Assembly (NCBI GenBank): GCA_965262915.1
Contig: OZ253564.1
Location: 2,944,001 to 3,008,000, forward strand
Length of the DNA: 64,000 nt
Direction: 5' to 3'
Source of the DNA: Candidatus Spongiisociaceae bacterium
Lineage (GTDB): Bacteria > Actinomycetota > Acidimicrobiia > Spongiisociales > Spongiisociaceae
How positions within the stretch are numbered: position 1 is the first letter of the stretch; each line of letters starts with the position of its first letter. Under the pieces are notes generated by a model. The model did no database searches. It had not been told where the DNA came from and saw only the letters and a list, made by a program, of their open reading frames with translations. The position numbers and the translations under genes were made by a program. Below, piece by piece: positions 43,214 through 58,095 of the stretch.

Positions 43214-44272
43214 TCACGCATCGGGCGCACCGGGAGCGGACGGTCCGCCAACGACCAGACCCCTGGCATCGATGACCACCTTGCCGTGCGCCACGAGGCG
43301 TCCGAGTTCCGCCATGGCCGCCACGGGATCGGCTCCGAGCGTGGACAGGAACTCGGCAACCGGCAGGCCGGTGTTGGCGACCGGGATGGCGGCCGGAGCG
43401 TCGGAGGGGGTGCTCGGTGGTTCTCCGATCACCAACTCCAGACACGCCATCAGGTCCTCGGCGTCCAGAACCGGGAAGGCTCCGTCCCGGATCAGCAGGT
43501 TGCAACCTATCGAACTCGGCCTTCCCACGTCACCCGGCGTAGCGAAGATGTCACGACCCTGATCGAGCGCGATCCGGGCGGTGACCAGCGCGCCTCCTTT
43601 GACGCCGGCCTCGACCACTACCACCGCGTGGGCGATGCCCGAGATGATCCGGTTGCGGGGAGGGAACCGCCAACCGAACGGTCGGCCGCCCGGGGGCGCC
43701 TCGCTCCACACGGTGCCACCGGCTTCGAGCAGGCTCGCACCGAGTTCCCGGTGCCGGCGGGGGTACCAGACATCCACCCCGGAGCCGAGTACCGCCACTC
43801 CCGGAGCAGGGCCGAGCAGGGAGCCACGGTGGGCGGCGCCGTCGATGCCCTTGGCGAGACCGCTCACCACCGACCAGCCGGCTCGGGAGACCGCCTCGCC
43901 GTATTGCTCCGCGAGCCGCCTGCCGTAGGTCGTGCAAGCCCTGGTACCCACGATGGCAACCGCTGTCCCTGTGAAGGAACGCCCTCGCTGGAAGAGGAAC
44001 AGGGGCGAGTCGGGTAGCTCTCGGAGATGTTCGGGGAACCTCTCATCGTCCCGGAGGAGAAAGTCGATCCTCGCGTTGCGCAGGCTTTCCCGCCGCTCGG
44101 AGGCCGGTATGGCGGCAGCTTGCCGGGCCCCGGCGGGTACGGTGAGCCTTCCCCGCTCGATATCCCGCAGCACCTTCGCAGGGGAGCCGGTCTTGGATGC
44201 CAGGCCCCGCAACCGATCGGGGTGCATCCCGACATGGGCCAGCCTGATCCAAGCATCTGCGGCGCTGGTCAT
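43214..44272 (-). CDS. dprA: DNA-processing protein DprA
   Basis: AIVGTR, VSGLAKGID, FPPRNRIISG, VVEA, GCNLLIRDGA. Confidence 0.96.
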   Translation of the reverse strand: MTSAADAWIRLAHVGMHPDRLRGLASKTGSPAKVLRDIERGRLTVPAGARQAAAIPASERRESLRNARIDFLLRDDERFPEHLRELPDSPLFLFQRGRSFTGTAVAIVGTRACTTYGRRLAEQYGEAVSRAGWSVVSGLAKGIDGAAHRGSLLGPAPGVAVLGSGVDVWYPRRHRELGASLLEAGGTVWSEAPPGGRPFGWRFPPRNRIISGIAHAVVVVEAGVKGGALVTARIALDQGRDIFATPGDVGRPSSIGCNLLIRDGAFPVLDAEDLMACLELVIGEPPSTPSDAPAAIPVANTGLPVAEFLSTLGADPVAAMAELGRLVAHGKVVIDARGLVVGGPSAPGAPDA

Positions 44273-45688
44273 AGCACCCCCCTCAGGATCAGGGCCTCGG
44301 ACGCGTGGGGCTCCTCCACACGGTCCGATCCGGCCAGATCAGCAATGGTCCTGGCCAACCGCCGTACCCTGTCGAACCCTCTTCCGGTCAGTGAGCCATG
44401 CCTGAGGGCCCCTTCGATCAGCTTCTGGGCGGAGACGGCCATGTCCACGGCATCGAGGTCGCTCCGACCGAGATCCCGGTTGCGGCGTCCCCGCCTCCGC
44501 TGGGCTTCCCGGGCGATCGACACCCGCCCGGCCACGTCGTGGCTGGGCTCCTCGGGCGGACCGATCATTGCATCCGGGTCTACCCCCTGGACCCGGACCC
44601 GTATGTCGAACCGGTCCATCAGGGGACCCGACAGGCGCCGCCGGTAACGCTGGATCATCCTGTCGGTGCAGGTGCATCCTTGGCGGTAGTCGTTGTTGTA
44701 GCCGCACGGGCACGGGTTGGTGGCGGCTACCAGCTGCACCTTGGCCGGGAACGTCATCGAGACGCCCTTCCTGGCGATGGTCACCTGCCCTTCTTCGAGC
44801 GGCTGCCGCAGGGCGTCCAGCAACTTGGGCGGGAACTCTCCGAGTTCATCCAGGAAGAGGACTCCCTGGTGGGCCATGCTTATCTCGCCCGGTACAGGGA
44901 CGCCCGATCCGCCTCCGATGACCGCCGCGGTGGTGGCTGTGTGATGAGGCGAACGGATCGGTGGCCGGAACAGGGAGGTCCTGGGCCGTCCCGCCGATGA
45001 CCACACCTGGGCGACCTCCAAGGCGGTTTCCTCGTCGAGGCCGGGCAATACACCCGGCAGGCACCGGGCCACCATCGTCTTCCCTGCGCCGGGGGGACCG
45101 GTGAGCAGCATGTGGTGACCACCCGCGGCCGCGACCTCGAGAGCCCGCTTGGCGAGGGGCTGGCCCCGGACCTCGGCGAGATCGGGGAGATCCGGTTCGG
45201 GCTGCCGGGGACGGGGCGGGGCTGGGAAGTCTCCCTCCCCCAACGCAGCCGAGACGGCCATGGCCAGTGATCTCACGGCTTGAACGTCCGCAGAGGACAC
45301 GAGGCTCGCTTCGGCGGCTGCATCGGGGGGTAGCAGGCACGTCATCCCGAGCTTCGAGGCGACGATGGCTGCTCCCAGGCCCCCTCGGGCGGGCCGCAGC
45401 CTACCGTCCAGCGCCAGTTCTCCCAGAGCCACGACGTTGCACGCCGCATCGGGGATCTCCCCCGCGGCAGCCAGAAGAGCCAGGGCTATGGGTAGGTCGT
45501 ACGCGCTGCCCGACTTGGGTAGGTCGGCGGGCGCAAGATTGACGGTCACCGAGCGCGGCGGGAAGCGGTATCCCGACACCGCCATGGCCGCCAACACCCG
45601 GTCCTTGGCTTCCCGGACTGCGGTGTCGGGCAGCCCCACCACGTTCAATCGGCCTTTCTCTCCTCCACCTACATGGGCTTCCACGCTG
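44269..45688 (-). pseudogene. comM: ComM/YifB Mg-chelatase-like AAA+ ATPase, 3' part (interrupted, frame otherwise intact)
   Basis: VVGLPDTAVREA, VNLAPADLPKSGSAYDL, GPPGAGKT, RSPHHT, LFLDE, ATNPCPCG; first ~20 codons are at 56202-56265. Confidence 0.93.
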
Positions 45689-45856
45689 GAAGCCAAAGTT
45701 ACTAGTTCAGGACGTAGCAGAAGCCATCATGAAACCCCTGTTCACCTGGGATTATAAGGTTATTCTGTAAGGGGCTGAGGTTCAGCGTATCACTTGATAA
45801 CGCTAAGAATCACCCGTTAAAGTGGTAACCAAACCGGTCACCACTTGGAAACGGAT

Positions 45857-47023
45857 ATGGCGAAACGATCAGGCGCAGCGATGACGGCAGCATTCTGCCG
45901 GACAGTGACACGGCCCGGACGGTACGGCGACGGTCGAGGCGGCCACGGTCTCTCATTACTCGTGAAACCGATGACCAGCACCGGGCGGATATCCCGCAGC
46001 TGGTCCCAACGGCTCCGCATCGACGGCCGGGTACGTTCTGTCGGCCTCGGGGCTTATCCCGCGGTCACTCTGGCCGAAGCCCGGCGGCGTGCCCTGCGCA
46101 ACGCACGGGAAGTCGCCGAAGGGCGCGACCCGTTAAAGCCGAAAACACCAACCTTCGAGCAAGCCGTTGAACGAGTCATCGGGATTCACGCGCGAAGCTG
46201 GAAGCAAGGGACGAAAACGGAAAAGGACTGGCGGCGCACACTCGCCACCTACGCGTTCCCAGTGATCGGACCGAAACGGGTAGACAAGATCGTCACCGCC
46301 GACGTGCTGCGCGTGATCCAACCGATCTGGAACGAGAAACCGGCCACAGCGCAACGGCTACGCCGCCGCATATCGGCGATCATGTCTTGGACGATAGCCG
46401 AGGGTCACCGAGCGGACGACCCGGCCGGTGCAGCTGTCCTAGCTGCGTTACCCAAGACCAACGGACCCCGAAACCATCACCGGGCGCTACCACACGCCGA
46501 AGTAGCCGACGCCGTGGCGCGGATACGACGGGTCCGAGCGCGGCCCATAACCCGACTGGTGGCCGAATTTGTCGTGCTCACGGCTTGCCGGTCCGGTGAA
46601 GCACGGGCTGCCCGCTGGAGCGAAGTAGACATGGACTCCCGGATGTGGACCGTTCCGGCCTCAAGGATGAAGAACGGCCGGGAGCATCGAGTACCGCTCA
46701 GCCGAGCCTCGTTGGCCGTCCTGGGCGAGGCGGGCGAACTCTCCGCCTGGTCTGGGTACGTGTTCCCCAACCGCTCCGGGCGTCCGCTAACCACCGAAGC
46801 CCTTCGCATGGTCTTCAGACACGCCAACCTTCAGACAACGGTTCACGGCTTCAGAACCAGCTTCAGAACATGGGCCGCCGAAGCCGGAGCGGACCGTACC
46901 GTTTCCGAGTTGTGCCTAGCCCATCGGGTCGGGTCAGCTACCGAACTCGCCTATCAACGGTCCGACCTGTTCCAGATACGGGCCGACCTGATGGAGGCCT
47001 GGGGTCAATACGTTGCCATATAG
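45857..47023 (+). CDS. P4-type tyrosine integrase, apparently intact
   Basis: PGRYGDG...GLGAYPAVTLAEAR arm domain; catalytic R (ACRSGE), HGFR, LAH, Y (AYQRSDL). Confidence 0.95.
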   Translation: MAKRSGAAMTAAFCRTVTRPGRYGDGRGGHGLSLLVKPMTSTGRISRSWSQRLRIDGRVRSVGLGAYPAVTLAEARRRALRNAREVAEGRDPLKPKTPTFEQAVERVIGIHARSWKQGTKTEKDWRRTLATYAFPVIGPKRVDKIVTADVLRVIQPIWNEKPATAQRLRRRISAIMSWTIAEGHRADDPAGAAVLAALPKTNGPRNHHRALPHAEVADAVARIRRVRARPITRLVAEFVVLTACRSGEARAARWSEVDMDSRMWTVPASRMKNGREHRVPLSRASLAVLGEAGELSAWSGYVFPNRSGRPLTTEALRMVFRHANLQTTVHGFRTSFRTWAAEAGADRTVSELCLAHRVGSATELAYQRSDLFQIRADLMEAWGQYVAI

Positions 47024-47121
47024 ACCTATATTAAAGGCCTTACCTAAATAGCTGTTCACTTTGATATAAGGTTATTCTTTAGTGGTTGCGGATAGAGAAA
47101 AGGGACACTACAGTAGCGTCC

Positions 47122-47322
47122 ATGACCGAACCTGATAGAAAACTCGACCGTATCATCCGACCCCGTGAACTAGGCGAGACCATCGGCATATCTCAGGCCA
47201 CGCTCCGGAGATGGTCGTCATCTGGCCGACTGCCCAAGCCGCTCAAATTTTCCGAGCGTTTTGTCGGTTGGCGAGCCAGCGTCATCCAGGAGTGGCTGGA
47301 CTCGCGGCCTCCAACCGCCTGA
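47122..47322 (+). CDS. AlpA-family regulator / excisionase
   Basis: RIIRPRELGETIGISQATLRRW...PKPLKFSERFVGW...IQEWL. Confidence 0.9.
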   Translation: MTEPDRKLDRIIRPRELGETIGISQATLRRWSSSGRLPKPLKFSERFVGWRASVIQEWLDSRPPTA

Positions 47323-47386
47323 TACTTCGGCAACCTTTCACGCACCAACCAGGGAGAAGAACGTGATGAGCAGGACCAGATAAAGC

Positions 47387-47417
47387 GAGCCCGCCGGGAC
47401 GAGATTCCGGCGGGCTC
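47387..47417. terminator. GC-rich hairpin between alpA and the helicase gene
   Basis: gagcccgccgg-N9-ccggcgggctc, 11-bp stem; weak U-tract. Confidence 0.5.
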
Positions 47418-47432
47418 TTGGAGGGGACAAGC

Positions 47433-48842
47433 ATGACCATGTCCAGACCGAATGCTAGCACACGGAAACCGGTCACGGCCGACCCCACTTCTTGGGCGCT
47501 CACCCAGCACAACCTGGCCGAAGTCTTCGCAGAACTCAACTCGATGAATCACACCCTTACCCACCGGTACACTCCGCGGGTCGGCTGGTACCAGTACCGC
47601 GCCGAGTATGGCTGGTCCCGCGACGAACTCAACCACACCCTTTCCGAGATACGCGGCCTTATGGCCCGCGCCGCCCAGTACTCGACGAAAAGCGCCGGGG
47701 CGAAGGCCCATACAATTGGGTTCGTGCGAGGCGTCGAACAGTTGGCCCGCCTCGACCCGGTTCACATAACCGCCGCCGACTGGTGGAACAGCGACCCCGA
47801 TTGGGCTGGGACACCCTACGGCAACGTCGAGTTGACCAGCGGCGAACTGTTCGCCCCCAGCCCGGCGAGGCTCATATCGCTGAGACTCGGCGCGGTTCCC
47901 GACGATGGGAAACGGCCGCACGCCTGGCTGCGGTTCCTGAACCAGGCGACCGGCTTCGATGTGGAACTGATCGACTTCCTGCAGAAGTGGATCGGCTACT
48001 GCCTGACCGGCCACACGTCCGAACACGTCCTCGCGTTCATCTACGGGCCAGGCGGAACAGGCAAATCGACGTTCGCAAATGTGGTGCGTGAACTGCTCGG
48101 ACAGTACGCCCGCCACTCGCCTATGGACACGTTCCTCGTAGCCCGCGGTGAACGGCATCCTACCGACCTGGCCGGCTTCGCCGGAGCCCGCCTCGTAACA
48201 GCCGTAGAAACCGACGAAGGCCGCCCCTGGGACGAAGCCAAACTCAAAGCCCTCACCGGAGACGACCCCATAACCGCCCGATACATGCGTAGGGATTTTT
48301 TCACCTACCGGCCCCGCTTCAAGCTACTCGTAGCAGGCAACGAGCTGCCGACCCTCAAGAGTCCCGACGAAGCGATGCGCCGACGGTTCCGCGTGGTCCC
48401 CTTCATCAACCGACCACCGAAACCCGACCGGAACCTCGCCGCCAAGCTCCGCTACGAACTCCCCGACATCCTCACCTGGGCTCTCGAAGGTACTCGCCTC
48501 TGGTACGACAACGGACTCGGCGGCGCCGCCATCGTCGAACAGGCAACCGCCGCATACTTCACCGACTCCGACCTCATAGGCCAGTGGCTCGGCGAAACCT
48601 GCACCTACACCCCCGGCGCCCAGCACCCACGCGAATCAGCCGCGACCCTCTGGCAAACGTGGACAGCATGGTCCAAGACCAACGGTATCGACCCCGGAAC
48701 ACGCCACCGATTCGGGCGGCAACTCGGCAGCCACGGCATCCACCCCGCAAAGATCGGTGGCAAAATCTACCGGCTCGGCATCCAACTACGCAGCCGCACC
48801 ACCCATCCCCCAACAGCCGACCAGGACCAGGCCCACCGATGA
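47433..48842 (+). CDS. P4/D5-family replication protein (SF3 helicase)
   Basis: FLQKWIGYCLTG, GPGGTGKST, LKALTGDDPITARYM, AGNELP, RRFRVVPF. Confidence 0.9.
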   Translation: MTMSRPNASTRKPVTADPTSWALTQHNLAEVFAELNSMNHTLTHRYTPRVGWYQYRAEYGWSRDELNHTLSEIRGLMARAAQYSTKSAGAKAHTIGFVRGVEQLARLDPVHITAADWWNSDPDWAGTPYGNVELTSGELFAPSPARLISLRLGAVPDDGKRPHAWLRFLNQATGFDVELIDFLQKWIGYCLTGHTSEHVLAFIYGPGGTGKSTFANVVRELLGQYARHSPMDTFLVARGERHPTDLAGFAGARLVTAVETDEGRPWDEAKLKALTGDDPITARYMRRDFFTYRPRFKLLVAGNELPTLKSPDEAMRRRFRVVPFINRPPKPDRNLAAKLRYELPDILTWALEGTRLWYDNGLGGAAIVEQATAAYFTDSDLIGQWLGETCTYTPGAQHPRESAATLWQTWTAWSKTNGIDPGTRHRFGRQLGSHGIHPAKIGGKIYRLGIQLRSRTTHPPTADQDQAHR

Positions 48843-48850
48843 CCACGCAA

Positions 48851-48982
48851 AGGACCTTCAGGACGATTAGGACCTTTCTCCCGTTTGGTCCCGCCCGCGC
48901 GTATGCGCGCGCGTCATGCGTATGCGCGCGTGCACACGTGAAGGCGATACCATGAAAAGGTCCTAATCGTCCTGATGGTCCT
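48851..48982. promoter_or_regulatory. putative replication origin with inverted iteron arrays
   Basis: 27-bp IR (1 mismatch) at 48851-77 and 48956-82, each with three AGGAC at 9-bp spacing, just downstream of the helicase gene. Confidence 0.7.
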
Positions 48983-49141
48983 GATTCCGAGAACGATTCC
49001 CAAACACCTACCCTCCGCCCGTCACAACAGAAAGGACCAACCAGTGTCAGTACAAGACAGCTACTCAATCAACCCACCACCAAGCCCCACCCCGACGACC
49101 CACCTCCAAGGCAGACTCACCGAGTACGACCGCCAACAGCA

Positions 49142-49435
49142 TTGACGACTACGACGACCTCGGCGCCTCCCGAGGAAGTGTGCGGGGGCGAGCTGTGTGT
49201 GGAGGACAACTACTACTTCGAGCGTTTCGGCAACGACTATTGGGCGTTCCGATTCCGGGTGGATAAGTCGTGCAGCGGGTTCTACGTCGAGGTTCATCTG
49301 CTCGATGACAACGGTCGTCGCACAGGCGACTGGGGAAACGACTTCGTGGGTTCGGTGACTGAGGGTGGCCAAGTGACTGTCGAGGTGCGGTACACCAAGG
49401 ACTGGTCCCAGTACGAGTTCGAGTGGTCCTGTTAG
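49142..49435 (+). CDS. hypothetical protein or fragment: Thr tract plus Cys/aromatic-rich domain
   Basis: Protein-like composition, weak TTG start; ends 16 bp before terL. Confidence 0.45.
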   Translation: MTTTTTSAPPEEVCGGELCVEDNYYFERFGNDYWAFRFRVDKSCSGFYVEVHLLDDNGRRTGDWGNDFVGSVTEGGQVTVEVRYTKDWSQYEFEWSC

Positions 49436-49451
49436 TAGCCGCATTGAGAGC

Positions 49452-50978
49452 ATGCTTTCCCGGTCGATAGTTGACTATCTCGAAGGGCTGACTGTTTCTC
49501 AGGGACGGCTGGCCGGTGAGCCGTTTCGGGTGTTGCCGTGGGAGGGTCGTTTCATTCGGGGGGCGTTCCGGACGGACGTGACGACGGCGGCGCTATCGGT
49601 CGCTAGGGCGAACGGTAAGACCTCGTTGACGGCTGGGATCTCCGCGGCGACGTTGGACGGTCCGCTGGTGGTGCCGCGGGGTGAGACGGTGATCGTGGCG
49701 TCGAGTTTCGAGCAGGCTCGGATAGCGTTTGAGCATGTTCGGGCGTTCATGGAACCGACCTTGGCCGAGGATCGGAAGCGGCGTTTTTCGGATCGCCGGT
49801 GGCGGGTTTGGGACACGGCGCAGCAGGCGCGGATTGAGGACCGGCAGACGGGTGCTCGGGTGCGTTGTGTTGGTTCTGATCCGCGTCGGGCGCATGGTTT
49901 GGCGCCGGTACTTGTTCTTGCTGACGAACCGGCTCAGTGGCCGCCTACTACCGGGGAGCGGATGGTGGCGGCGTTGAGGACGGCGGCGGGTAAGCAGCCT
50001 CACTCCCGGTTTGTGGCTTTGGGTACTCGTCCGGATGATCCGGAGCATTGGTTCGCGAAGATGCTGTCGGGTGGTGCGGACTATTCGCAGTGTCACGCGG
50101 CCCGGCCTGGCGATCCACCGTTTCAGAAGCGGACTTGGACGCGGGCAAATCCGTCGATGCGGTTCATGCCTGATCTTGAGGCGGCGATCCGGGCTGAGGC
50201 GCAGCAGTCGAAACGTGACCCGTCGTTGCTGGCATCGTTCGAGGCGTTGCGGCTGAATCTTGGGACTCCGGACACTGAGACTGCGGTGCTGTTAGACGCC
50301 GGGTTGTGGGCGTCGATTGAGGGCGAAGCGCCGATGGTCGGCCCGGCCGTCTGGGGTGTTGATTTGGGTACGTCGGCGGCTCAGTCGGCGGTTGCGTGTT
50401 TCTGGCCGGAGTCGGGTGCGTTGGCGGTGTTGGCAGCCTTCCCGGAGATTCCGTCGCTTGAGGAACGCGGCCGCCGTGACGGTGTGGCCGGCCTTTATCG
50501 GGAATGCCACCGTCGGGGCGAACTGTTGACCCTGGAACGGCGGGCTGTGGACGTGGAGCAGCTGCTGCAGATGGCGTTGGACCGTTTCGGCCGCCCCAGC
50601 GTGGTTGTTGCGGACCGTTGGCGGGAAGCCGAACTCCGTGACGGTCTGGACCGGGCGAGGGTTCCGGCGGCGGCGTTCGAGACTAGGGGTATGGGTTTCA
50701 AGGACGGTGGGGAGGATGTTCGCCAGTTTCGTCGGGCTTGCGCTGACGGCATCGTTACACCGGTCCGGAGTCTGCTGTTGCGGTCTGCGATGGCTGAGGC
50801 TCGTACCGTGAGCGATCCGGCTGGTAACTCGAAGTTGGGGAAGGGTTCGCAGGGCGGCCGTCGGTTGCGGGCTCGGGATGACGCGGCCGCAGCGGCGATC
50901 CTGGCGGTGGCTGCAGGGATGCGACGGCGGTCACGCGGCCCGGCCCGTCGGAGGCTGCGGACAGCTCTGGTCGGCTGA
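49452..50978 (+). CDS. terminase large subunit
   Basis: PFRVLPWE, ARANGKT (Walker A), VLADE (Walker B), GVDLG and RDDAAAA nuclease motifs. Confidence 0.9.
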   Translation: MLSRSIVDYLEGLTVSQGRLAGEPFRVLPWEGRFIRGAFRTDVTTAALSVARANGKTSLTAGISAATLDGPLVVPRGETVIVASSFEQARIAFEHVRAFMEPTLAEDRKRRFSDRRWRVWDTAQQARIEDRQTGARVRCVGSDPRRAHGLAPVLVLADEPAQWPPTTGERMVAALRTAAGKQPHSRFVALGTRPDDPEHWFAKMLSGGADYSQCHAARPGDPPFQKRTWTRANPSMRFMPDLEAAIRAEAQQSKRDPSLLASFEALRLNLGTPDTETAVLLDAGLWASIEGEAPMVGPAVWGVDLGTSAAQSAVACFWPESGALAVLAAFPEIPSLEERGRRDGVAGLYRECHRRGELLTLERRAVDVEQLLQMALDRFGRPSVVVADRWREAELRDGLDRARVPAAAFETRGMGFKDGGEDVRQFRRACADGIVTPVRSLLLRSAMAEARTVSDPAGNSKLGKGSQGGRRLRARDDAAAAAILAVAAGMRRRSRGPARRRLRTALVG

Positions 50979-51005
50979 TCGCCCTCCAGATCAGCACGCC
51001 ACTGG

Positions 51006-51158
51006 CTACCGCAACTTTAACGCAGCTAGCAAAGCAATCACCCCAAGGCCCACGCCCAACGCCTGTCGCCACGGGGGGTCGAAGAACCAACTGAGGTTTG
51101 TCCCAACCACAAGGACAACGACGACGATCACGACGATTGCTATAGCCTTCTCCATCAT
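51006..51158 (-). CDS. small protein with two predicted TM helices
   Basis: MMEKAIAIVVIVVVVLVVG...ALGVGLGVIALLAALKLR; fills an intergenic gap. Confidence 0.55.
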   Translation of the reverse strand: MMEKAIAIVVIVVVVLVVGTNLSWFFDPPWRQALGVGLGVIALLAALKLR

Positions 51159-51195
51159 GCTCGGAGCGTAACCGCCGCAACGGTAGGTTTGGGGA

Positions 51196-51480
51196 ATGTC
51201 CCGCCACCACCTGACCCTCAACCGCCGTAGGTGGGCGATTGTCCGTCGTGCCGCCCTGCATCGTGACGCCTGGCGGTGTCAGCAGTGTGGGCGGGCGGGC
51301 CGGCTGGAGGTCGATCACGTCCGGGCGCTTGAGGATGGCGGCGATCCGTGGGCGCCCGATAACCTGCAGGCCCTTTGCCGGCGGTGTCACATTCGCAAGA
51401 CAACGGTGGAGAATCGGGCTCGTCGCCCGGTGTTGCCGGAGGTTGAAGCGTGGATTCAGTTGGTGGACGAGTTGCTCTGA
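51196..51480 (+). CDS. HNH endonuclease (packaging-associated type)
   Basis: RDAWRCQQCG...EVDHV...GG...NLQALCRRCHIRKT. Confidence 0.92.
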   Translation: MSRHHLTLNRRRWAIVRRAALHRDAWRCQQCGRAGRLEVDHVRALEDGGDPWAPDNLQALCRRCHIRKTTVENRARRPVLPEVEAWIQLVDELL

Positions 51481-51528
51481 CCCGTCTCTCAAGTTAACCC
51501 CCGGGAAGCTTCCTGCCAGTCGTCACGC

Positions 51529-51894
51529 CTACCGCTCCGAATCGAGCCTCGGGACCCAGCCGTCCCAATCCCTTTCCGGATAGTGCTTTTTCACCACCCT
51601 GTATGTGGGTGATAGATCAAGAGCTTGGTTCCCCACTTGGGGATGGTCCAAGGTGACCATCTTCCCTTTGAGTTCCACGACCACGCCGGCGTAAAGCTTC
51701 GCGGACGCTAGACCCGGCACTGTCTGAATCTGAACCCAGCGTTTGGGATTCTGGGCTTTCTGGTTTTCCTTGAGCCTTGGGTAGTAAGGGAGAACGACCG
51801 ACGGTCTGCTTTTCCACCAGGTTAAGACCGCGATCGGTGCGCCTGCGATGACTACGACGCTCGCAACCAAGTTCACTACTTCAAGAACCGTCAT
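51529..51894 (-). CDS. membrane-anchored hypothetical protein (accessory)
   Basis: N-terminal TM helix; visibly more AT-rich than neighbours; antisense to the structural genes. Confidence 0.65.
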   Translation of the reverse strand: MTVLEVVNLVASVVVIAGAPIAVLTWWKSRPSVVLPYYPRLKENQKAQNPKRWVQIQTVPGLASAKLYAGVVVELKGKMVTLDHPQVGNQALDLSPTYRVVKKHYPERDWDGWVPRLDSER

Positions 51895-52047
51895 GTGCGA
51901 TCCTCACTAAATGACCCATAGACCGCAGGGTACATCTTGCCGCTGAGGATCTATGGGAAATGGCGGAGACCGGTTGTTGCACCAGGTCTCAGTTCGTATC
52001 AGATAGTATCATCTACTGATAACCATGGATAATGGTAAAATTATCTC

Positions 52048-53346
52048 ATGACTCCGAAGCAACGCCTCCAATTGGAACAGTCCGAGAAACGCCAGCGTCT
52101 CAATGACCTGCTCGCCGAAGACCAGCTATCAGACGAGCAGCGGTCCGAGATGGACGACTTCACCAAGCGAATGCAGCAGATCGAAGTCGAGATGCGGGCA
52201 GCGATCATCGCGGAACCCGATCCGGTCACGTCACCGGCAGCGGACAACACGGACCGGGACCGGCTCGAACTCCGGTCGAAGGCGTCTGTGGGCCGCTACC
52301 TGCTCGCTGCTATGCGGGGCCGTTCTGTTCAGGGTGCGGAGCGGGAACTGTTGGACGAGGCCGGACTCGATGATGGGACGATCCCCCTGGAGTTGTGGGA
52401 CACGAACCGGCCGGTGGAGCAGCGGGCCGATTCGGTGTCGGGTTCGCCCTCTACGGTTGGCGTGAACCTGGACCGGCTACGGCCTGCCGTGTTCGCACCG
52501 TCGATCCTGCCCCGGCTGGGTGTGGAAATGCCAAGGGTCGCCTCGGGTACTTACGCGTCCGGGACAATCACGACCTCGTTGACCGCCGCGGCTCAGGCGA
52601 AGGGTGACGCGGCTTCGGCGTCGGCGGCTGCGTTCACCGTCACGTCCGTCACCCCGAAGCGGATCTCCGCACGGCTTGCCATAGCAATTGAGGATGTGGC
52701 CGCGGTCGGTCAGGCCAACTTCGAGAGCATCCTACGAGAGAACCTCAGCCTGGCGCTGTCGAATGAGTTGGACAAGCAGGGTCTCAACGGAGCGGGCGGC
52801 AACTCGGGCAAAGACCTGGTGGGTGTTTTCCACCGGCTTGACAACCCGACCGCACCAACCGCCGCGGCCACCTTCGACGCGTTCGTAGCCGCGTTCGCCG
52901 GTGGGATAGACGGGCTGTGGGCGCGCACCGTGTCCGAGGTAGCGGTCGTGGCCGGTGTTACCACCTACGGGCTGTCCGCGAAGACGTTCCGGGACCGGGT
53001 GATCGACACCGGACAGCGGGGCGGGGTGTCGCTCGGTGACACATCGTTCGCTGACTATGCGATGGCGAACTATGGCGGATGGTGGACGAACAAGCGGATG
53101 CCCGCCGCTGACGCCACGTCGAAGGTTCAACAGGCCATCCTCTACCGGAAGGGCCGGTCGATGATGGGCGGCTCCGGTGGGATGCGCACCGCGGTGTGTC
53201 CCCATTGGAACATGATCAGCATTGACGACATCTACTCCGGCTCGGCGCAGGGTGAGCGGTACTTCACCATGCACGTCCTGTTGGGCGATGTGATCCTGGT
53301 CCAGCCCGACGCTTACGCGCAGGTCGCGTTCAAGACGGCGGCGTGA
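52048..53346 (+). CDS. major capsid protein (HK97-like, with N-terminal coiled-coil scaffold)
   Basis: Helical N-terminal ~100 aa, VTPKRISARL, NLSLALSNELDKQGLNG, QPDAYA at the C-terminus; next to the protease. Confidence 0.8.
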   Translation: MTPKQRLQLEQSEKRQRLNDLLAEDQLSDEQRSEMDDFTKRMQQIEVEMRAAIIAEPDPVTSPAADNTDRDRLELRSKASVGRYLLAAMRGRSVQGAERELLDEAGLDDGTIPLELWDTNRPVEQRADSVSGSPSTVGVNLDRLRPAVFAPSILPRLGVEMPRVASGTYASGTITTSLTAAAQAKGDAASASAAAFTVTSVTPKRISARLAIAIEDVAAVGQANFESILRENLSLALSNELDKQGLNGAGGNSGKDLVGVFHRLDNPTAPTAAATFDAFVAAFAGGIDGLWARTVSEVAVVAGVTTYGLSAKTFRDRVIDTGQRGGVSLGDTSFADYAMANYGGWWTNKRMPAADATSKVQQAILYRKGRSMMGGSGGMRTAVCPHWNMISIDDIYSGSAQGERYFTMHVLLGDVILVQPDAYAQVAFKTAA

Positions 53347-53347
53347 T

Positions 53348-54223
53348 GTGCCGGAGCGTGCTGCCGCGGTCGAGTTCCGCGTTTCGGGTCGCACCCTTGT
53401 AGGGGAGGCCATCCGTTACAACCAGCAGGCCCGTGACCGGGCGGAACTGTTCGAGTCGGGAGCGTTCCAACCCATAGGGGACGTGACCCTCAACTTACAG
53501 CACGACCCGGAACGGGTGATCGCTGACACCAGGGCCGGAACGTTGCGGATCGACGACAGTCCCGACGCTCTCCGACTCGAAGCCGATCTGCGGGAGAACT
53601 CGGCGGAACTGGCGCTCGTGAGACGCCGCGCTCTGCGTGGCCTGAGCGTCGAGTTCCGCTGCCGGTCCGAACGGCGAGACGACGGCCTGCGGGTAGTCGA
53701 GAAGGCCGACCTTCCCGCTATCGGGCTGGTCGACTCAGGTAGCTACCGGACCGGTGTCGAACTACGGGCCGCGTTCGGCGACGCCTGGTTGACTGCCGAG
53801 ATTCGGTTTGGTACCCGGATGCAATGCCAATGTCAGGGGCTGACCTGCACCGATGTCGAGTTCGAGCCCGGAGCGTTCACCGACCTGATGGAGCGCCGCG
53901 ATGTCCTAGCTGTCGGCGGTGGCGGATTTGCCAACGTGTTGGGCTCTACCCGCCGGGGAACGCTGCTGGTCGAGCAGACCGACAAGGGTCTCCGGGTTGG
54001 GTTGACCAACCAGCAGACGGACACGGCCCGGCGAGTGATCGAAGCCGCCGCGGTTGCTGACATCTTCGTGCGGCCGCTGATCGACGTTGAACAGTCCGAG
54101 TACCAGGATGAGGGCACCACCAGACGCTACACACGGGCTGTCACACGGGCGCTACTGGTCAAACCAACCCCCGACCAGCCGAGGCCACCGGGCAGCCCGT
54201 GTACGGGGCGTACAGACCCGTAG
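53348..54223 (+). CDS. HK97-family prohead protease with a duplicated second domain
   Basis: LVGEAIRYN, ELFESGAF, NLQHD (His), GLSVEF (Ser), GLVDSGSY. Confidence 0.8.
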   Translation: MPERAAAVEFRVSGRTLVGEAIRYNQQARDRAELFESGAFQPIGDVTLNLQHDPERVIADTRAGTLRIDDSPDALRLEADLRENSAELALVRRRALRGLSVEFRCRSERRDDGLRVVEKADLPAIGLVDSGSYRTGVELRAAFGDAWLTAEIRFGTRMQCQCQGLTCTDVEFEPGAFTDLMERRDVLAVGGGGFANVLGSTRRGTLLVEQTDKGLRVGLTNQQTDTARRVIEAAAVADIFVRPLIDVEQSEYQDEGTTRRYTRAVTRALLVKPTPDQPRPPGSPCTGRTDP

Positions 54224-54232
54224 GAGGCGGCT

Positions 54233-54547
54233 GTGGCTGTAACCCTCACCGCGCAGCAGCTCGCGGACGAGACCAGCGCAGACCTCGACCGGGCTACTCG
54301 TGTGCTCGCCGTTGCCCGCCGGATGGTCGAGGACTACGCGCCGCTCGCACCGTCTGAGATACAGGACGAAGCCGCAATCCGGTTCGGCGGCTATCTGCTC
54401 AGCAGTGACTACGGCGCGGTTCGTGACGAGTCGATAGGGCCTATGTCGGTGTCCTATGTGGTCAACCATTCCAGCGCTTTCAGAAACTCCGGTGCGGCCA
54501 TGTTGCTGACCAGGTACAAGCAGCGAAGAGCCGGGACTGTCGGATGA
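54233..54547 (+). CDS. putative head-tail connector / head completion protein
   Basis: ~100 aa helical; APSEIQDEAAIR, ESIGPMSVSY, AMLLTRYK; lies between protease and portal. Confidence 0.6.
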   Translation: MAVTLTAQQLADETSADLDRATRVLAVARRMVEDYAPLAPSEIQDEAAIRFGGYLLSSDYGAVRDESIGPMSVSYVVNHSSAFRNSGAAMLLTRYKQRRAGTVG

Positions 54548-55608
54548 GATGGCCGTGGACCCGTACCGAGAAGCGCGACTCGGGTGGCGACTTCTCCGAC
54601 GCAGTGGTACGTCTCATCGAGGCGCAGGCCGCAGGCACAGCAGCCGACGCCAGCAGCACTGCCGGTGTGGAAGCAGCAGCCGGTGCCCTCTCCCGATCCT
54701 TCGCCGCCGCCACCGTAGAAGCCGAACCCTGGGCACGGGAAGCCGTCACCCCGGTTGTGCTGGCTCAGATCGGCCGTGACCTCGTAAGGTCCGGCGATTC
54801 ACTGCACGTCATCCAGGTGGTCGGCGGCCGGGCGAAACTGATTCCGTGTTCCTCGTGGCATTGGGAAGGTAGCCATGATCCGGACACCTGGACCGTGCGG
54901 GCAACCGCCTACGGGCCTTCCACGTCCACCACCTGGAACCTTCCCGCGTCTGGTGTCGTGTTCGTCCGTTGGGGATCAACACCCGGCCAGCCGTATGTTG
55001 GGGTAGGGCCTACATCGTGGGCGCAGACCACCGCCCGCCTCCAATCCCAAGCCGAGAAGGCGCTGGCCGACGAGTCCGGCGGGCCTATCACCAACCTGCT
55101 GCCCGTTCCCCAAGACGGTGGCGACGGGTCCGACACGGACCCTCTCGCACCGCTCAAGGCCGACATAGCAGCAGCCCGCGGCCGGGCGGTACTCGTCGAA
55201 ACCACATCGGCCGGATGGGGCGAGGGGAAGATGGCAGCACCACAAGCCGACTGGCAGGTACGACGCCTCGGCCCGAACCCCACCCAAGTACAAGCCACCG
55301 TCGCGCAGCAAGCCTTCGAGCGCACCCTCGCCGCCTGCGGCGTGCCACCGTCACTGTTCATTAGCGACGACGGCACCGCACAGCGTGAAGCCGTCCGACG
55401 CTGGCACCTGGGAACCGTCATCCCCCTCGCCGACCTGGCGGCCTGGGAACTGGCCGCCAAGCTCGAAACGCCGGTCACGCTCCGCTTCGACAGCTACCCG
55501 CTCGACCTCGCGGGAAGGGCGCAGGCGTTCCAGAAACTCGTCGCCGGGGGCATGGACACCGACCGTGCATTGCAGATATCCGGGCTGATGGTTGACGATG
55601 CCGCGTAG
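54544..55608 (+). CDS. phage portal protein
   Basis: MRWPW...EKR N-terminus, DLVRSGDS, AACGVPPSL, TVIPLA...ELAAKL. Confidence 0.75.
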   Translation: MRWPWTRTEKRDSGGDFSDAVVRLIEAQAAGTAADASSTAGVEAAAGALSRSFAAATVEAEPWAREAVTPVVLAQIGRDLVRSGDSLHVIQVVGGRAKLIPCSSWHWEGSHDPDTWTVRATAYGPSTSTTWNLPASGVVFVRWGSTPGQPYVGVGPTSWAQTTARLQSQAEKALADESGGPITNLLPVPQDGGDGSDTDPLAPLKADIAAARGRAVLVETTSAGWGEGKMAAPQADWQVRRLGPNPTQVQATVAQQAFERTLAACGVPPSLFISDDGTAQREAVRRWHLGTVIPLADLAAWELAAKLETPVTLRFDSYPLDLAGRAQAFQKLVAGGMDTDRALQISGLMVDDAA

Positions 55609-56059
55609 ATGCGAACTCGACGGCTGCGACAACCCCTACCTGGCCCGGGGCATGTGCAACAAGCACTACCTACGATGGAAAACCCGCGGTGGCAAGACCA
55701 GGCCACGACCCGCGCTGTGGTCACCCGAGGAAGACAGGTTGCTGCTCGCTGCCGGGTTGACACCCCACACCGAACGATGGTCTGGCGAGTCCCGCTTGCG
55801 TGATGTTGCCCGCGAGCTTGGCCGCACCGAGACGGCATGCTGCACCCGTCTCAACCGGCTGATGAAGCGGGCCGGACATGCAGGCGGCCAGTGGACCGTC
55901 GAAGGTCTCTGGACCCCGGAGGAAGACGCAGTGATCCTCGAACAGGCAGCCTCAGGACAGCCCGACTGGATCGCTACCGGCCGCTTGCTGGGTCGAACCC
56001 GTGCGGCGTGCGCGGTCCGGGCCTACAACCTCCGCAAGCAGGAGCGTCTCGCTAGCTGA
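55598..56059 (+). CDS. zinc-finger plus two Myb/SANT-like repeat protein
   Basis: C-x4-C-x9-C-x2-H, then WSPEEDRLL...VARELGRTETAC and WTPEEDAVIL...W...LGRTRAAC. Confidence 0.75.
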   Translation: MPRRCELDGCDNPYLARGMCNKHYLRWKTRGGKTRPRPALWSPEEDRLLLAAGLTPHTERWSGESRLRDVARELGRTETACCTRLNRLMKRAGHAGGQWTVEGLWTPEEDAVILEQAASGQPDWIATGRLLGRTRAACAVRAYNLRKQERLAS

Positions 56060-56201
56060 TGTCCGCGGGCGCGATCTCCGGGCTGGTGGCCGATGGGTTA
56101 GCAACTCCGCTGGCGCTCATCCGAAAACACGTTGGCATAGCGGAAGTGGTAATCGGAACTTCCGAAAACGCCGTGACCTGGGGAAACACTCCCTTGCTGG
56201 A

Positions 56202-56265
56202 CTTCCACGCTGACGGCACGCGCCTTCACTCCGACCAGCGCTACAGAATTGGTTGATGCAAACAT
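56202..56265 (-). pseudogene. comM: comM 5' fragment
   Basis: MFASTNSVALVGVKARAVSVE, in frame with SVEAHVGGG at the other junction. Confidence 0.88.
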
Positions 56266-56459
56266 GTCGATAAGGATAGAGAGAGGGTGTGACACACAGT
56301 TGGCTGGCGATAGTTAGTTGCTGTTAAATGTCCGTAGAGGATGGCCGACCGGCCGGGTGGAGCGTGCCGGGGGGTCTTGGAGAGGTGGGTACACGGCGCC
56401 GGTAGGTATGGGGATCGCCGGTAGGCATGGAAATCGACGGTTAGGAGTCAGGAACCCGG

Positions 56460-56654
56460 CTACGGGTACGGGGGCCTGCCGGTCAGCCGGCGCTGCTCCT
56501 TGTGCCAGCATCCGTGATGCCAGTGCCTGCGCAGGTCGGGTGCGTCCTCTGGGACGACCACCAGATGGAATCTGCCAACGGCGATCACGCCTTCGCATCC
56601 CGGACAGCGGTAGGCCTTGGTAGCCGATCCGGGTTGCACGTGACGAACGCTCAA
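56460..56654 (-). CDS. small Cys/His-containing protein of a type common in actinobacteria
   Basis: KAYRCPGCEGVI...HLVVVP...RRHWHHGCW. Confidence 0.75.
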   Translation of the reverse strand: MSVRHVQPGSATKAYRCPGCEGVIAVGRFHLVVVPEDAPDLRRHWHHGCWHKEQRRLTGRPPYP

Positions 56655-56764
56655 CCGCCCAGAAATGCCCATGCGACCAAGGCTGCGGTCAGAACCAGTG
56701 CTCCCACCACCATGGCTATGTCGGCGGCGCGGTGCTGCTGCTTTCGAAACGGATTGAACCCCAT
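56651..56764 (-). CDS. 37-aa single-TM protein (below the ORF-track cutoff)
   Basis: MGFNPFRKQQHRAADIAMVVGALVLTAALVAWAFLGG; its stop overlaps the next TTG start. Confidence 0.6.
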   Translation of the reverse strand: MGFNPFRKQQHRAADIAMVVGALVLTAALVAWAFLGG

Positions 56765-56877
56765 GCTCCGATGCTATCGCAGAAAGGCAGGCTTACCGAG
56801 ACACGGAAAGACGCCCGACCGCGACGAGCCTACGCAACCAAGACCCGACCTCATCCCACCGACCACCGACCATCTAC

Positions 56878-57225
56878 TCAGGCCACCCGACGGTGCCACT
56901 CGATCCCGACTCCGTCGGCGCCGACCACGACCGTGACGAGATCCACCCTGCGGACCCCTATGGAACGGGCCATCCGAGCCACCCGGCTCGCCTTGCGGTC
57001 CGTGAAGTTCCATCGCGGGTGATCCCTGACCGGGTGGCTTCCTGACTTGACCTCCACGACGAACCTTCCGTCGTCGTCCTCGGCGATCAGATCGATCTCG
57101 CCGCGGCCGACGGTCACGTTGTGCCGGACGATCCTCACGCCGTTGCGAACCAGGAACGAGGCGGCGGCCCACTCCCCGAACGCGCCCAGGCGTCGACGAT
57201 GGGCGGCGAGTGCGTCATCCGGCAT
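56878..57225 (-). CDS. yraN: YraN family PD-(D/E)xK protein
   Basis: LGAFGEWAA, GEIDLIA, VEVK; usual neighbour of comM-dprA. Confidence 0.88.
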   Translation of the reverse strand: MPDDALAAHRRRLGAFGEWAAASFLVRNGVRIVRHNVTVGRGEIDLIAEDDDGRFVVEVKSGSHPVRDHPRWNFTDRKASRVARMARSIGVRRVDLVTVVVGADGVGIEWHRRVA

Positions 57226-57399
57226 ATCGGCGGTCCTCCAGGGTGTAGGTGCTCCTGCAGAGCGATGCTACGGCGGCCCTGTGACAGACCCGATCGCATG
57301 CCTCGTCCGCGTGGTCGGTGGATGATCGTCAGGAAGGTGTGTCCAGGAGTGCGGACCCGAGAGAACGGCCGGTTGGAGCCTCGGCCGGTGGAATGAGGG

Positions 57400-58095
57400 T
57401 CACAGGCCCTCCCAGCGCGAGAGTGGCCAGATCCGGACGAATGCCCTGCCGACCACCTCGTCTATGGGAACCGGCCCGAAACGGCGGCTGTCCTGGCTGT
57501 TGTTGCGGTTGTCACCCATCACCCACACGTGGTCGGTCGGTATGTAGACGGGCGCCCTGTCCCGCATCTTGAATCCGGGTGCCAGGTAGGGCTCGTCGAG
57601 CGGAACACCGTTCAAGAGCACCTGGTTGTTCCGTATCTCCAGCCGGTCCCCCCCGACCGCGATCACCCGCTTTATGAGGTCCTCCACGTAGGTGGTCCTG
57701 ATCCCGACCGCCTCGAGGACGTTGCGCGTCACCTTCTGCGGGAAGGATTCCTGCAGATCATCCGTGATCAGGGGGGAATCGAAGACGATGACATCCCCTT
57801 GTTCCGGACCGTTGAACCTGTAGGCGATCTTGCTGACCAGTACCCGGTCGTCGATCTCCAAGGTCGGAATCATCGATGGTGAGGGGATGAAGAAGGCCTG
57901 AAGGAGGAAGGTCTTTATCAGCACGGCCAGGAGGAGGGCCATCAGAAGCACGCCGGGCAAGTCGCGCAGGAACCTGGTCCATCCCCCGGGCCGCGTCCGG
58001 CGACCGGAATGGGTGTCCGGAGCATGGGGCGGACCGTCTGGCCGGTCGGTGTCCGTGGGCCCGCCCAAAGACAGGTGCTCGATTCGCCCGTTCAT
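57400..58095 (-). CDS. lepB: signal peptidase I
   Basis: IPSPSMIPTL, LIKRVIA, MGDNRNNSQDSR. Confidence 0.95.
   Translation of the reverse strand: MNGRIEHLSLGGPTDTDRPDGPPHAPDTHSGRRTRPGGWTRFLRDLPGVLLMALLLAVLIKTFLLQAFFIPSPSMIPTLEIDDRVLVSKIAYRFNGPEQGDVIVFDSPLITDDLQESFPQKVTRNVLEAVGIRTTYVEDLIKRVIAVGGDRLEIRNNQVLLNGVPLDEPYLAPGFKMRDRAPVYIPTDHVWVMGDNRNNSQDSRRFGPVPIDEVVGRAFVRIWPLSRWEGL

Follow-up and report, generated by a model that had tools for sequence, protein, structure and literature searches.

The 64-kb window analysed here (the whole stretch of DNA under study, 64,000 nucleotides, from a Candidatus Spongiisociaceae bacterium) carries the gene comM in two pieces, the break, after codon ~21, being occupied by a 10,524-bp element that lies between copies of an 11-bp direct repeat. 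In our judgement, this element is probably a satellite-like island of ~10.5 kb, selfish in character, which by its insertion probably inactivates comM, and not a switch serving the host. The first-pass annotation of this DNA had already described comM as split and as rebuilt in frame on excision, and both points are upheld by the two copies of the 11-bp core, by a reconstructed frame of 1,473 nt and by an empty site present in the public metagenome run X14. Its further proposal, a satellite-controlled competence switch, is not retained for the reasons given below. The features that make up the interrupted gene are the following.

44269..45696, minus strand: comM 3′ fragment, open for 475 codons between TTG 45696 and the stop at 44269, with ComM homology from 45688
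45678..45688, no strand assigned: attL copy of the core, which with the next four bases of the element forms a perfect dyad, CTTCCA-cgc-TGGAAG (45678-45692)
45689..56201, no strand assigned: integrated element of ~10.5 kb, with a GC content of 0.55-0.69 versus 0.66-0.71 in the flanks, skipped by the empty-site contig
56202..56212, no strand assigned: attR copy of the core, CTTCCACGCTG, located by pattern search and as the contig joint in X14
56202..56265, minus strand: comM 5′ fragment, 21 codons from ATG 56265 including the repeat, resembling the N-terminus of intact orthologs

Read on the minus strand from ATG 56265, the 5′ fragment gives MFASTNSVALVGVKARAVSVE followed by the repeat, and leftward of 45688 the 3′ fragment continues as ..SVEAHVGGGEKGRLNVVGLPD.. 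in the direction of its stop. The 11-mer CTTCCACGCTG is not among the 20 largest families of a general repeat listing and was located by direct pattern search, which returned exactly two copies in the window (45678-45688 and 56202-56212); the chance expectation was 0.02, and two or more matches were obtained in none of 100 shuffles. When the core is extended by four bases to the left (TGGG in one copy, TGGA in the other), both copies are identical at 14 of 15 positions, in agreement with the earlier count. In silico excision, i.e., the deletion of 45689-56212 with retention of one copy of the repeat, yielded a 490-codon gene (1,473 nt) with a single, terminal stop and with a start like that of intact orthologs. 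The uninterrupted comM site (..CCGTCAGCGTGGAAGcacatg..) was found in 10 of the 11 loci of relatives that were read, the encoded N-terminus being MFASTNSVALVGVEARAVSVEAHVGGG.. or a near variant of it, and the eleventh locus, that of the congener G001, is itself occupied. comM is single-copy in the host genome. The lack of decay previously claimed for the 3′ part is confirmed by its 475 open codons and by the Pfam domains ChlI, Mg_chelatase and Mg_chelatase_C, all of them full-length.

The empty site was observed in public data. The 24 public runs found are all represented by contigs, and none is recorded as RNA, no RNA run being listed for positions 44800-47100; four of them (X1, X5, X14 and X17) were aligned to positions 43500-57500 of the window. 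X1 is probably the source sample. X14, from another study than the best-matching runs, contains a 9,006-nt contig, with a depth of 61.5, that joins 45677 to 56202 and omits 10,524 bases; at the joint, 11 letters are compatible with both sides, and there are two other letters per flank. This contig represents the predicted empty attachment site (attB): a chromosome nearly identical to the one studied, in which comM is whole. The insertion is thus precise, polymorphic in nature and, because a near-identical strain with an empty site exists, recent, as had been supposed from the sequence.

Read depths and contig ends in the same runs concern the occupied form. In X1, the contigs of the element had depths of 48-96 versus 113-122 for those of the flanks, and the corresponding values in X5 were 2.5-4.3 versus 18-24; the lower depth of the element fits a mixture of occupied and empty populations. 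Contigs of two studies span attR (X1 record 7, X5 record 30), and contig ends fall exactly at 45688, 56202 and 56231, as would be expected of a 31-mer assembly graph holding both forms. No attP, circular or back-joint form was present among the contigs of the four aligned runs, a kind of data that cannot prove absence, and an exact scan of viral contigs with a 28-nt stretch of the attL junction gave 0 matches. So, concerning the two junctions that the first-pass annotation had pointed to as a check, attB has been seen, in X14, and attP has not.

Every recognised gene of the element lies on the plus strand, antisense to comM, as listed here.

45845..47023, plus strand: tyrosine integrase (Pfam Arm-DNA-bind_3, Phage_int_M and Phage_integrase), divergent from the comM 3′ fragment and starting 157 nt from the core
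47086..47322, plus strand: AlpA-type regulator or excisionase-like helix-turn-helix protein (profile match)
47418..48842, plus strand: primase/helicase (D5_N, DUF5906; PHROG DNA primase, 2.9e-94)
49452..50978, plus strand: large terminase TerL (PHROG 9, 1.2e-50; Pfam TerL_ATPase, 23.1 bits with a cut-off of 23.7)
51196..51480, plus strand: HNH endonuclease (profile match)
52048..53346, plus strand: major capsid protein (Phage_capsid; PHROG 10), with a 51% identical homolog in the viral contig L180
53348..54223, plus strand: prohead serine protease (Peptidase_S78)
54233..54547, plus strand: 104-aa ORF without family match, a head-tail connector by position only, with a 41% identical homolog at the same place in L180
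54544..55608, plus strand: portal-like protein (354 codons) without Pfam or PHROG match, with a 37% identical homolog in L180
55592..56059, plus strand: 155-aa Myb-like DNA-binding protein whose start resembles an HNH zinc finger; it may be a small terminase (TerS) or a regulator

Judged from these genes, the element appears to have the layout of a capsid-forming phage-inducible chromosomal island (cf-PICI), a class whose gene set was defined by de Sousa et al. (2023) and whose median length is 14 kb (PMC10085698), against ~10 kb here. Like these islands, it carries at its left end an integrase, a regulator of the AlpA/MerR/Stl type and a primase-replicase; beyond these lie genes for HNH, TerL, capsid and prohead protease and a putative portal gene, with TerL assigned by PHROG and falling slightly under the Pfam cut-off. 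Among the 14 element ORFs submitted, of which small unassigned ones remain, there was no Pfam or PHROG match to tail, holin or lysis genes; the same two collections gave no family assignment as TerS or head-tail adaptor to the 104-aa and 155-aa ORFs. The portal enters the comparison through its protein-atlas neighbours, which without exception belong to Phage_portal clusters (score 0.98; no more than a lead), and through synteny with L180. The latter is an IMG/VR contig of 9,490 nt, presumably circular (99-nt terminal overlap), that displays the same order TerL-HNH-capsid-protease-small ORF-portal at 32-51% identity; no homolog of the integrase, primase or AlpA of the element was found in it. 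The element differs from known cf-PICIs in the order of its head genes (TerL and HNH first, portal last) and in its host, which lies outside Proteobacteria and Firmicutes, where most satellites and the cf-PICI hosts described in that source belong (PMC10085698). A 27-nt inverted repeat (96% complementary, 78 nt apart) is located after the primase gene, at 48851-48982 of the window, and might serve as an origin of replication or in packaging.

Concerning the choice of the integration site, the integrase of the element is a P4-type tyrosine integrase that recombines in the 11-bp core within comM codons 18-22. G001 carries a 67-68% identical integrase and an AlpA-like gene at the same comM codon, and the 15-mer of the attL dyad is also present at its junction. 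The comM site has thus been used a second time, in a congener, by a related integrase, which answers in the affirmative the earlier question of whether homologous integrases target the same codon. The cargo of the comM element of G001 is different, without recognisable phage head genes; its junction region is otherwise unrelated, and the ends of the two elements have nothing in common beyond the 15-bp dyad. This occupied-site pattern was found in 2 of 29 genomes of the family, those of G001 and of the host itself (G000).

The integrase family extends beyond these two cases. It was hit at E ≤ 1e-40 in 25 of the 401 genomes sampled from the order, with at least four copies in G000; three of these, 53-54% identical, lie at G000:C1:238860-239996, 1239153-1240292 and 347259-348398, the first of them adjoining tRNA-Ser and tRNA-Arg genes (L147). 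None of 28 paralog integrase loci fetched from the order is at comM or dprA. tRNA genes adjoin 6 of the 25 paralog loci scanned (L121-L140 and L144-L148), and ten sampled paralog neighbours include such unrelated genes as those for an oxidoreductase, a sulfatase, ZnuA, a methylase and an AAA protein. Relatives from other phyla were adjacent to comM in 0 of 8 genome-contig loci and 0 of 13 viral loci, while 80 metagenome integrase loci included two at comM (both of the G001 type) and two at dprA. The two nearest named relatives of the integrase belong to an Acidimicrobiales and a Gemmatimonadetes metagenome-assembled genome (MAG). The first of these, the GC content of 65% and the order yraN-comM-dprA, which is also described in Bifidobacterium (PMC13660472), indicate that the host probably belongs to Actinomycetota.

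The minus-strand gene order in the window is rplS, lepB, yraN (UPF0102), a 70-codon ORF, comM and dprA, the stop of comM overlapping the start of dprA in the sequence ATGA. The neighbours of comM are as follows.

43214..44272, minus strand: dprA (DNA_processg_A), its start overlapping the comM stop
56460..56672, minus strand: 70-aa ORF between yraN and comM, without family match
56878..57225, minus strand: yraN (UPF0102), upstream member of the yraN-comM-dprA cluster

Two tandem 19-nt units occupy 56397-56434, ~130-170 nt upstream of the comM start, and the strain in X5 is without 19 nt there; the number of copies thus varies in what is presumed to be the upstream region of comM. As a separate observation, the comM of another congener, G004 (G004:C1:2274608-2276025), matches as two adjacent pieces (fragment residues 3-79 and 84-475), with starts 242 nt apart and in different frames, possibly as a result of a frameshift or an assembly error.

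dprA is a second target of related integrases. It was found split at codons ~200-212, beside integrases 51-54% identical to that of the element, in the genomes G007 and G001 and in the metagenome contigs L028 and L042. In G007 (C75/C85; L151, L154), dprA residues 3-212 are on one contig and residues 200-343 on another, with a 51% identical integrase 193 nt away from the latter piece. In G001 (C68/C242; L152, L155), residues 4-211 follow the comM 3′ piece, and residues 200-351 are on a separate contig beside a frameshifted integrase. L028 and L042 have the same dprA junction as G007 and G001, and around the FPPRNRI codons the junction sequences agree with the intact gene over ~8-19 bases. Insertions in comM or dprA thus occur in 3 of the 8 species representatives of the genus g1, with G001 hit in both genes; G007 and G001 are fragmented MAGs (100 contigs and 6% contamination, and 270 contigs and 8%, respectively) with the dprA halves on different contigs. 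In another genome, G017, dprA breaks at contig ends around codon 198-202 (C30 end, C73 start; L153, L156); this ambiguous break was not counted and may be another occupied or polymorphic site.

The motifs CCAGGTCAC/GTGACCTGG and the repeated ATGAAACA recur near the element ends, ATGAAACA being present twice at each of the two dprA-side ends read (that of G007 and that of G001, identical in L028). From their recurrence, these motifs look like candidate integrase-binding sites. An integrase tree of 31 rows was built, leaving out partial or stop-containing rows, the frameshifted L155 and L042, and G001 duplicates. The two comM integrases were sisters with support 100/99, the dprA integrase of G007 grouped with this pair at 93/94 on a long branch, and the dprA integrase of the L028 type fell in another clade.

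Concerning the consequences of the insertion, we infer that ComM is inactivated, its native upstream region and residues 1-17 being lost. As the element genes are antisense and the integrase is divergent, the comM 3′ part has lost its connection to yraN and to its own upstream region, and no recognised element gene is positioned to read into it. Conservation was estimated from 20 orthologs (54-79% identity) of 22 candidates, two of which were dropped by an N-terminal motif filter though they carry the S-x-A-L-V-G segment; four near-duplicate close relatives were omitted. In this alignment, 8 of the 17 positions lost (47%) are at least 90% conserved, versus 205 of 477 elsewhere (43%). An AlphaFold (AF2) model of an intact ortholog, run with the 20-row alignment (pLDDT 87.5, pTM 0.83), superseded an unusable single-sequence model of ComM (pLDDT 36.7) and displays strands at residues 2-11 and 14-24. 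According to this model, residues 1-17 would make up the first strand and the beginning of the second in the Lon-like hexamerisation domain, part of a conserved beta-hairpin. The solved ComM of L. pneumophila aligns from residue 4-5, and its hexamer ring is described as built by the N-terminal Lon-like domain, which contacts DNA (PMC11612176). In Bifidobacterium pseudocatenulatum, which has the same cluster of three genes, the single deletion of yraN, comM or dprA is reported to abolish natural transformation in each case (PMC13660472).

The expression of dprA is probably lowered by the insertion, since its translation is coupled to that of comM. The polarity on dprA suggested in the first-pass annotation is made plausible by the ATGA overlap and by the antisense orientation of the element genes. 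The genome also encodes ComEC, ComEA and three T2SSE-type (pilus-type) ATPases. Homologs of comEC and comEA lie at G000:C1:2937523-2939231, ~5-6 kb before the window start and within ~50 kb of comM-dprA.

Several observations weigh against the interpretation that a competence function has been lost. The conservation rows were chosen by an N-terminal motif, which biases them toward conservation, and ComEC, ComEA and the pilus-type ATPases also occur in non-transformable control genomes; natural transformation in this lineage is putative. A truncated ComM could still be made from the in-frame TTG 45696 or GTG 45684, a perfect TATAAT on the comM strand (minus strand, 45756-45751) cannot be dismissed, and in G001 an ATG borne by the element leads a 488-codon comM fusion frame. 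The pairwise ratios of nonsynonymous to synonymous substitution (dN/dS) are not higher for split copies (0.057-0.127) than for intact pairs (0.059-0.113). The in-frame TTG, the TATAAT, the fusion frame of G001 and the dN/dS values could be accommodated by a functionally silent insertion, in which the element end would give a promoter and a start codon to a slightly shortened ComM that works, as would DprA. Nevertheless, this is the least probable of the explanations considered. There is no Shine-Dalgarno-like run ahead of TTG 45696; consensus scans for promoters and terminators, which carry no weight either way, gave one match on the integrase side and none outward or upstream of comM. The ends of the elements in the window and in G001 share only the dyad, and the repeat ATGAAACA that supplies the G001 ATG recurs at dprA-side ends and resembles an integrase-binding repeat, so the 488-codon frame is a probable by-product. 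Moreover, the residues lost belong to the confidently modelled, conserved hairpin. The dN/dS result fits either a retained function or a very recent insertion: with dS above 1 for most pairs, i.e., saturated, a recent insertion cannot show in it. Consequently, the comparison of split and intact copies that had been recommended at the outset reveals no relaxed selection and is uninformative.

A reversible competence switch, in which a cue would drive a non-lethal excision that restores comM and dprA, as with the Listeria comK prophage, seems to us very unlikely. A scarless restoration is possible, an integrase and an AlpA-type factor are both encoded, and the samples seem to contain both the occupied and the empty form, as judged from the depths and from the contig breaks at 45688 and 56202/56231. 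On the other hand, scarless excision is a property of any conservative site-specific recombination and is therefore not evidence for a switch, and strain mixtures explain the coexistence equally well. To this must be added that no attP or circular form appears in the contigs or in the viral collection, and that the depth of the element is below, not above, that of the flanks. PICI satellites normally leave the chromosome when the helper phage is killing the cell, so the host would rarely profit from a restored comM. The comK prophage of Listeria resembles the present case in its location inside a competence-related gene that precise excision restores; in that system of 'active lysogeny', regulated non-lytic excision and a benefit to the host are said to have been shown experimentally (reportedly by Rabinovich et al. 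in 2012), whereas in the present case both are hypothetical.

The explanation that we favour, a selfish and probably inactivating island, would work as follows. The P4-type tyrosine integrase of the island would insert it into comM at the 11-bp core; ComM, deprived of residues 1-17 and of its native upstream region, would be inactive, and dprA expression would drop through its coupling to comM. The crippled transformation-type recombination would then shield integrated elements from deletion by incoming DNA ('chromosomal curing'). Excision would rebuild comM exactly and, for a satellite, would be expected mainly during helper-phage growth. The use of the same codon in a congener and the presence of related integrases at dprA fit a targeted disruption better than a switch. 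One can tentatively go further and propose that a lineage of P4-type integrases in the genus has repeatedly specialised on yraN-comM-dprA (comM codons 18-22, dprA codons ~200-212) as an evolved defence against deletion by transformation, carried by capsid-forming satellite-like elements and by other small islands; we regard this as possible and not as probable. Against such specialisation, integrases of the same family adjoin tRNA genes and varied protein genes, so comM and dprA may be two targets among many. Indeed, the conserved dyad-like stretch of comM might be used just for its invariance, as tRNA genes are, with an incidental effect on recombination. The attB segment is highly conserved, its residues V18, V20, E21 and H23 being invariant in the 20 orthologs, and the tRNA genes beside 6 of 25 paralog loci, the unrelated genes beside others and the relatives from other phyla, never comM-adjacent, all agree with such a neutral use. 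Yet two genes of one three-gene module have been struck, by integrases of at least two clades and in 3 of 8 species representatives, and competence genes are reported as statistically enriched among the targets of other recombinase families (PMC10083194), which makes purely neutral use a rather unlikely explanation.

The interrupted gene has much in common with comM insertions known from other bacteria: its pieces are collinear around foreign DNA with a short direct repeat, the element has its own site-specific recombinase beside one junction (the integrase at 45845-47023), and the site is uninterrupted in relatives and strains (10 of 11 loci and the X14 contig). Tyrosine-integrase elements in comM have been described in the gammaproteobacteria Aggregatibacter, Mannheimia, Francisella, Pseudomonas syringae and Acinetobacter (Croucher et al. 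2016, PMC4774983), and comM islands have been read as an escape from deletion by transformation (PMC4774983, PMC12378983, PMC11472951). The present element is like those in being an integrase-bearing island whose orthologous site is reused across species, and unlike them, as far as those accounts go, in its host of another lineage with 65% GC, in the use of codons 18-22 and in its phage-head cargo. Large serine recombinases (LSRs) also land in comM with clean in-gene insertions, in cases that span many phyla: Mg-chelatase/ComM genes are given as the target of 12.4% of predicted site-specific LSRs, with competence genes enriched (Durrant et al. 2022, PMC10083194). The recombinase here is instead a tyrosine integrase with an arm-binding domain, and an LSR element was ruled out since Pfam gives only Phage_integrase, Phage_int_M and Arm-DNA-bind_3. 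The AbaR and Tn7-like islands of Acinetobacter baumannii disrupt comM and lower transformation, which has been argued to favour island persistence (PMC11472951, PMC11441513); AbaR islands differ, as described there, in being transposons that enter the Mg-chelatase domain with Tns-type machinery, with no integrase and no recombination at an att core.

Concerning precedents in the literature, the portions available of a 2025 review do not include dprA among its disrupted genes and mention neither Actinomycetota nor PICI, satellites figuring only in its reference list. A literature search gave no case of dprA as attB in the texts available, with the proviso that cases in dprA or from actinobacteria may figure in the supplementary tables of Durrant 2022 and Croucher 2016. 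Within the available portions of the published reports compared, no phage satellite, nor any host outside Proteobacteria and Firmicutes, is given as using an anti-transformation strategy.

Mobile elements in comM are thus already well known, and what is added here is a new type of element together with sister integrases at the neighbouring dprA. If the insertion were silent or merely opportunistic, it would be one more case of a very common landing site. If ComM and DprA are truly disabled, near-identical strains with and without the island, together with sister integrases that have moved between two genes of one pathway, would make up a natural polymorphic test of 'chromosomal curing' beyond the usual Gram-negative and streptococcal models. 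It would also add a host group to those in which capsid-forming satellites occur and link these satellites to interference with transformation.

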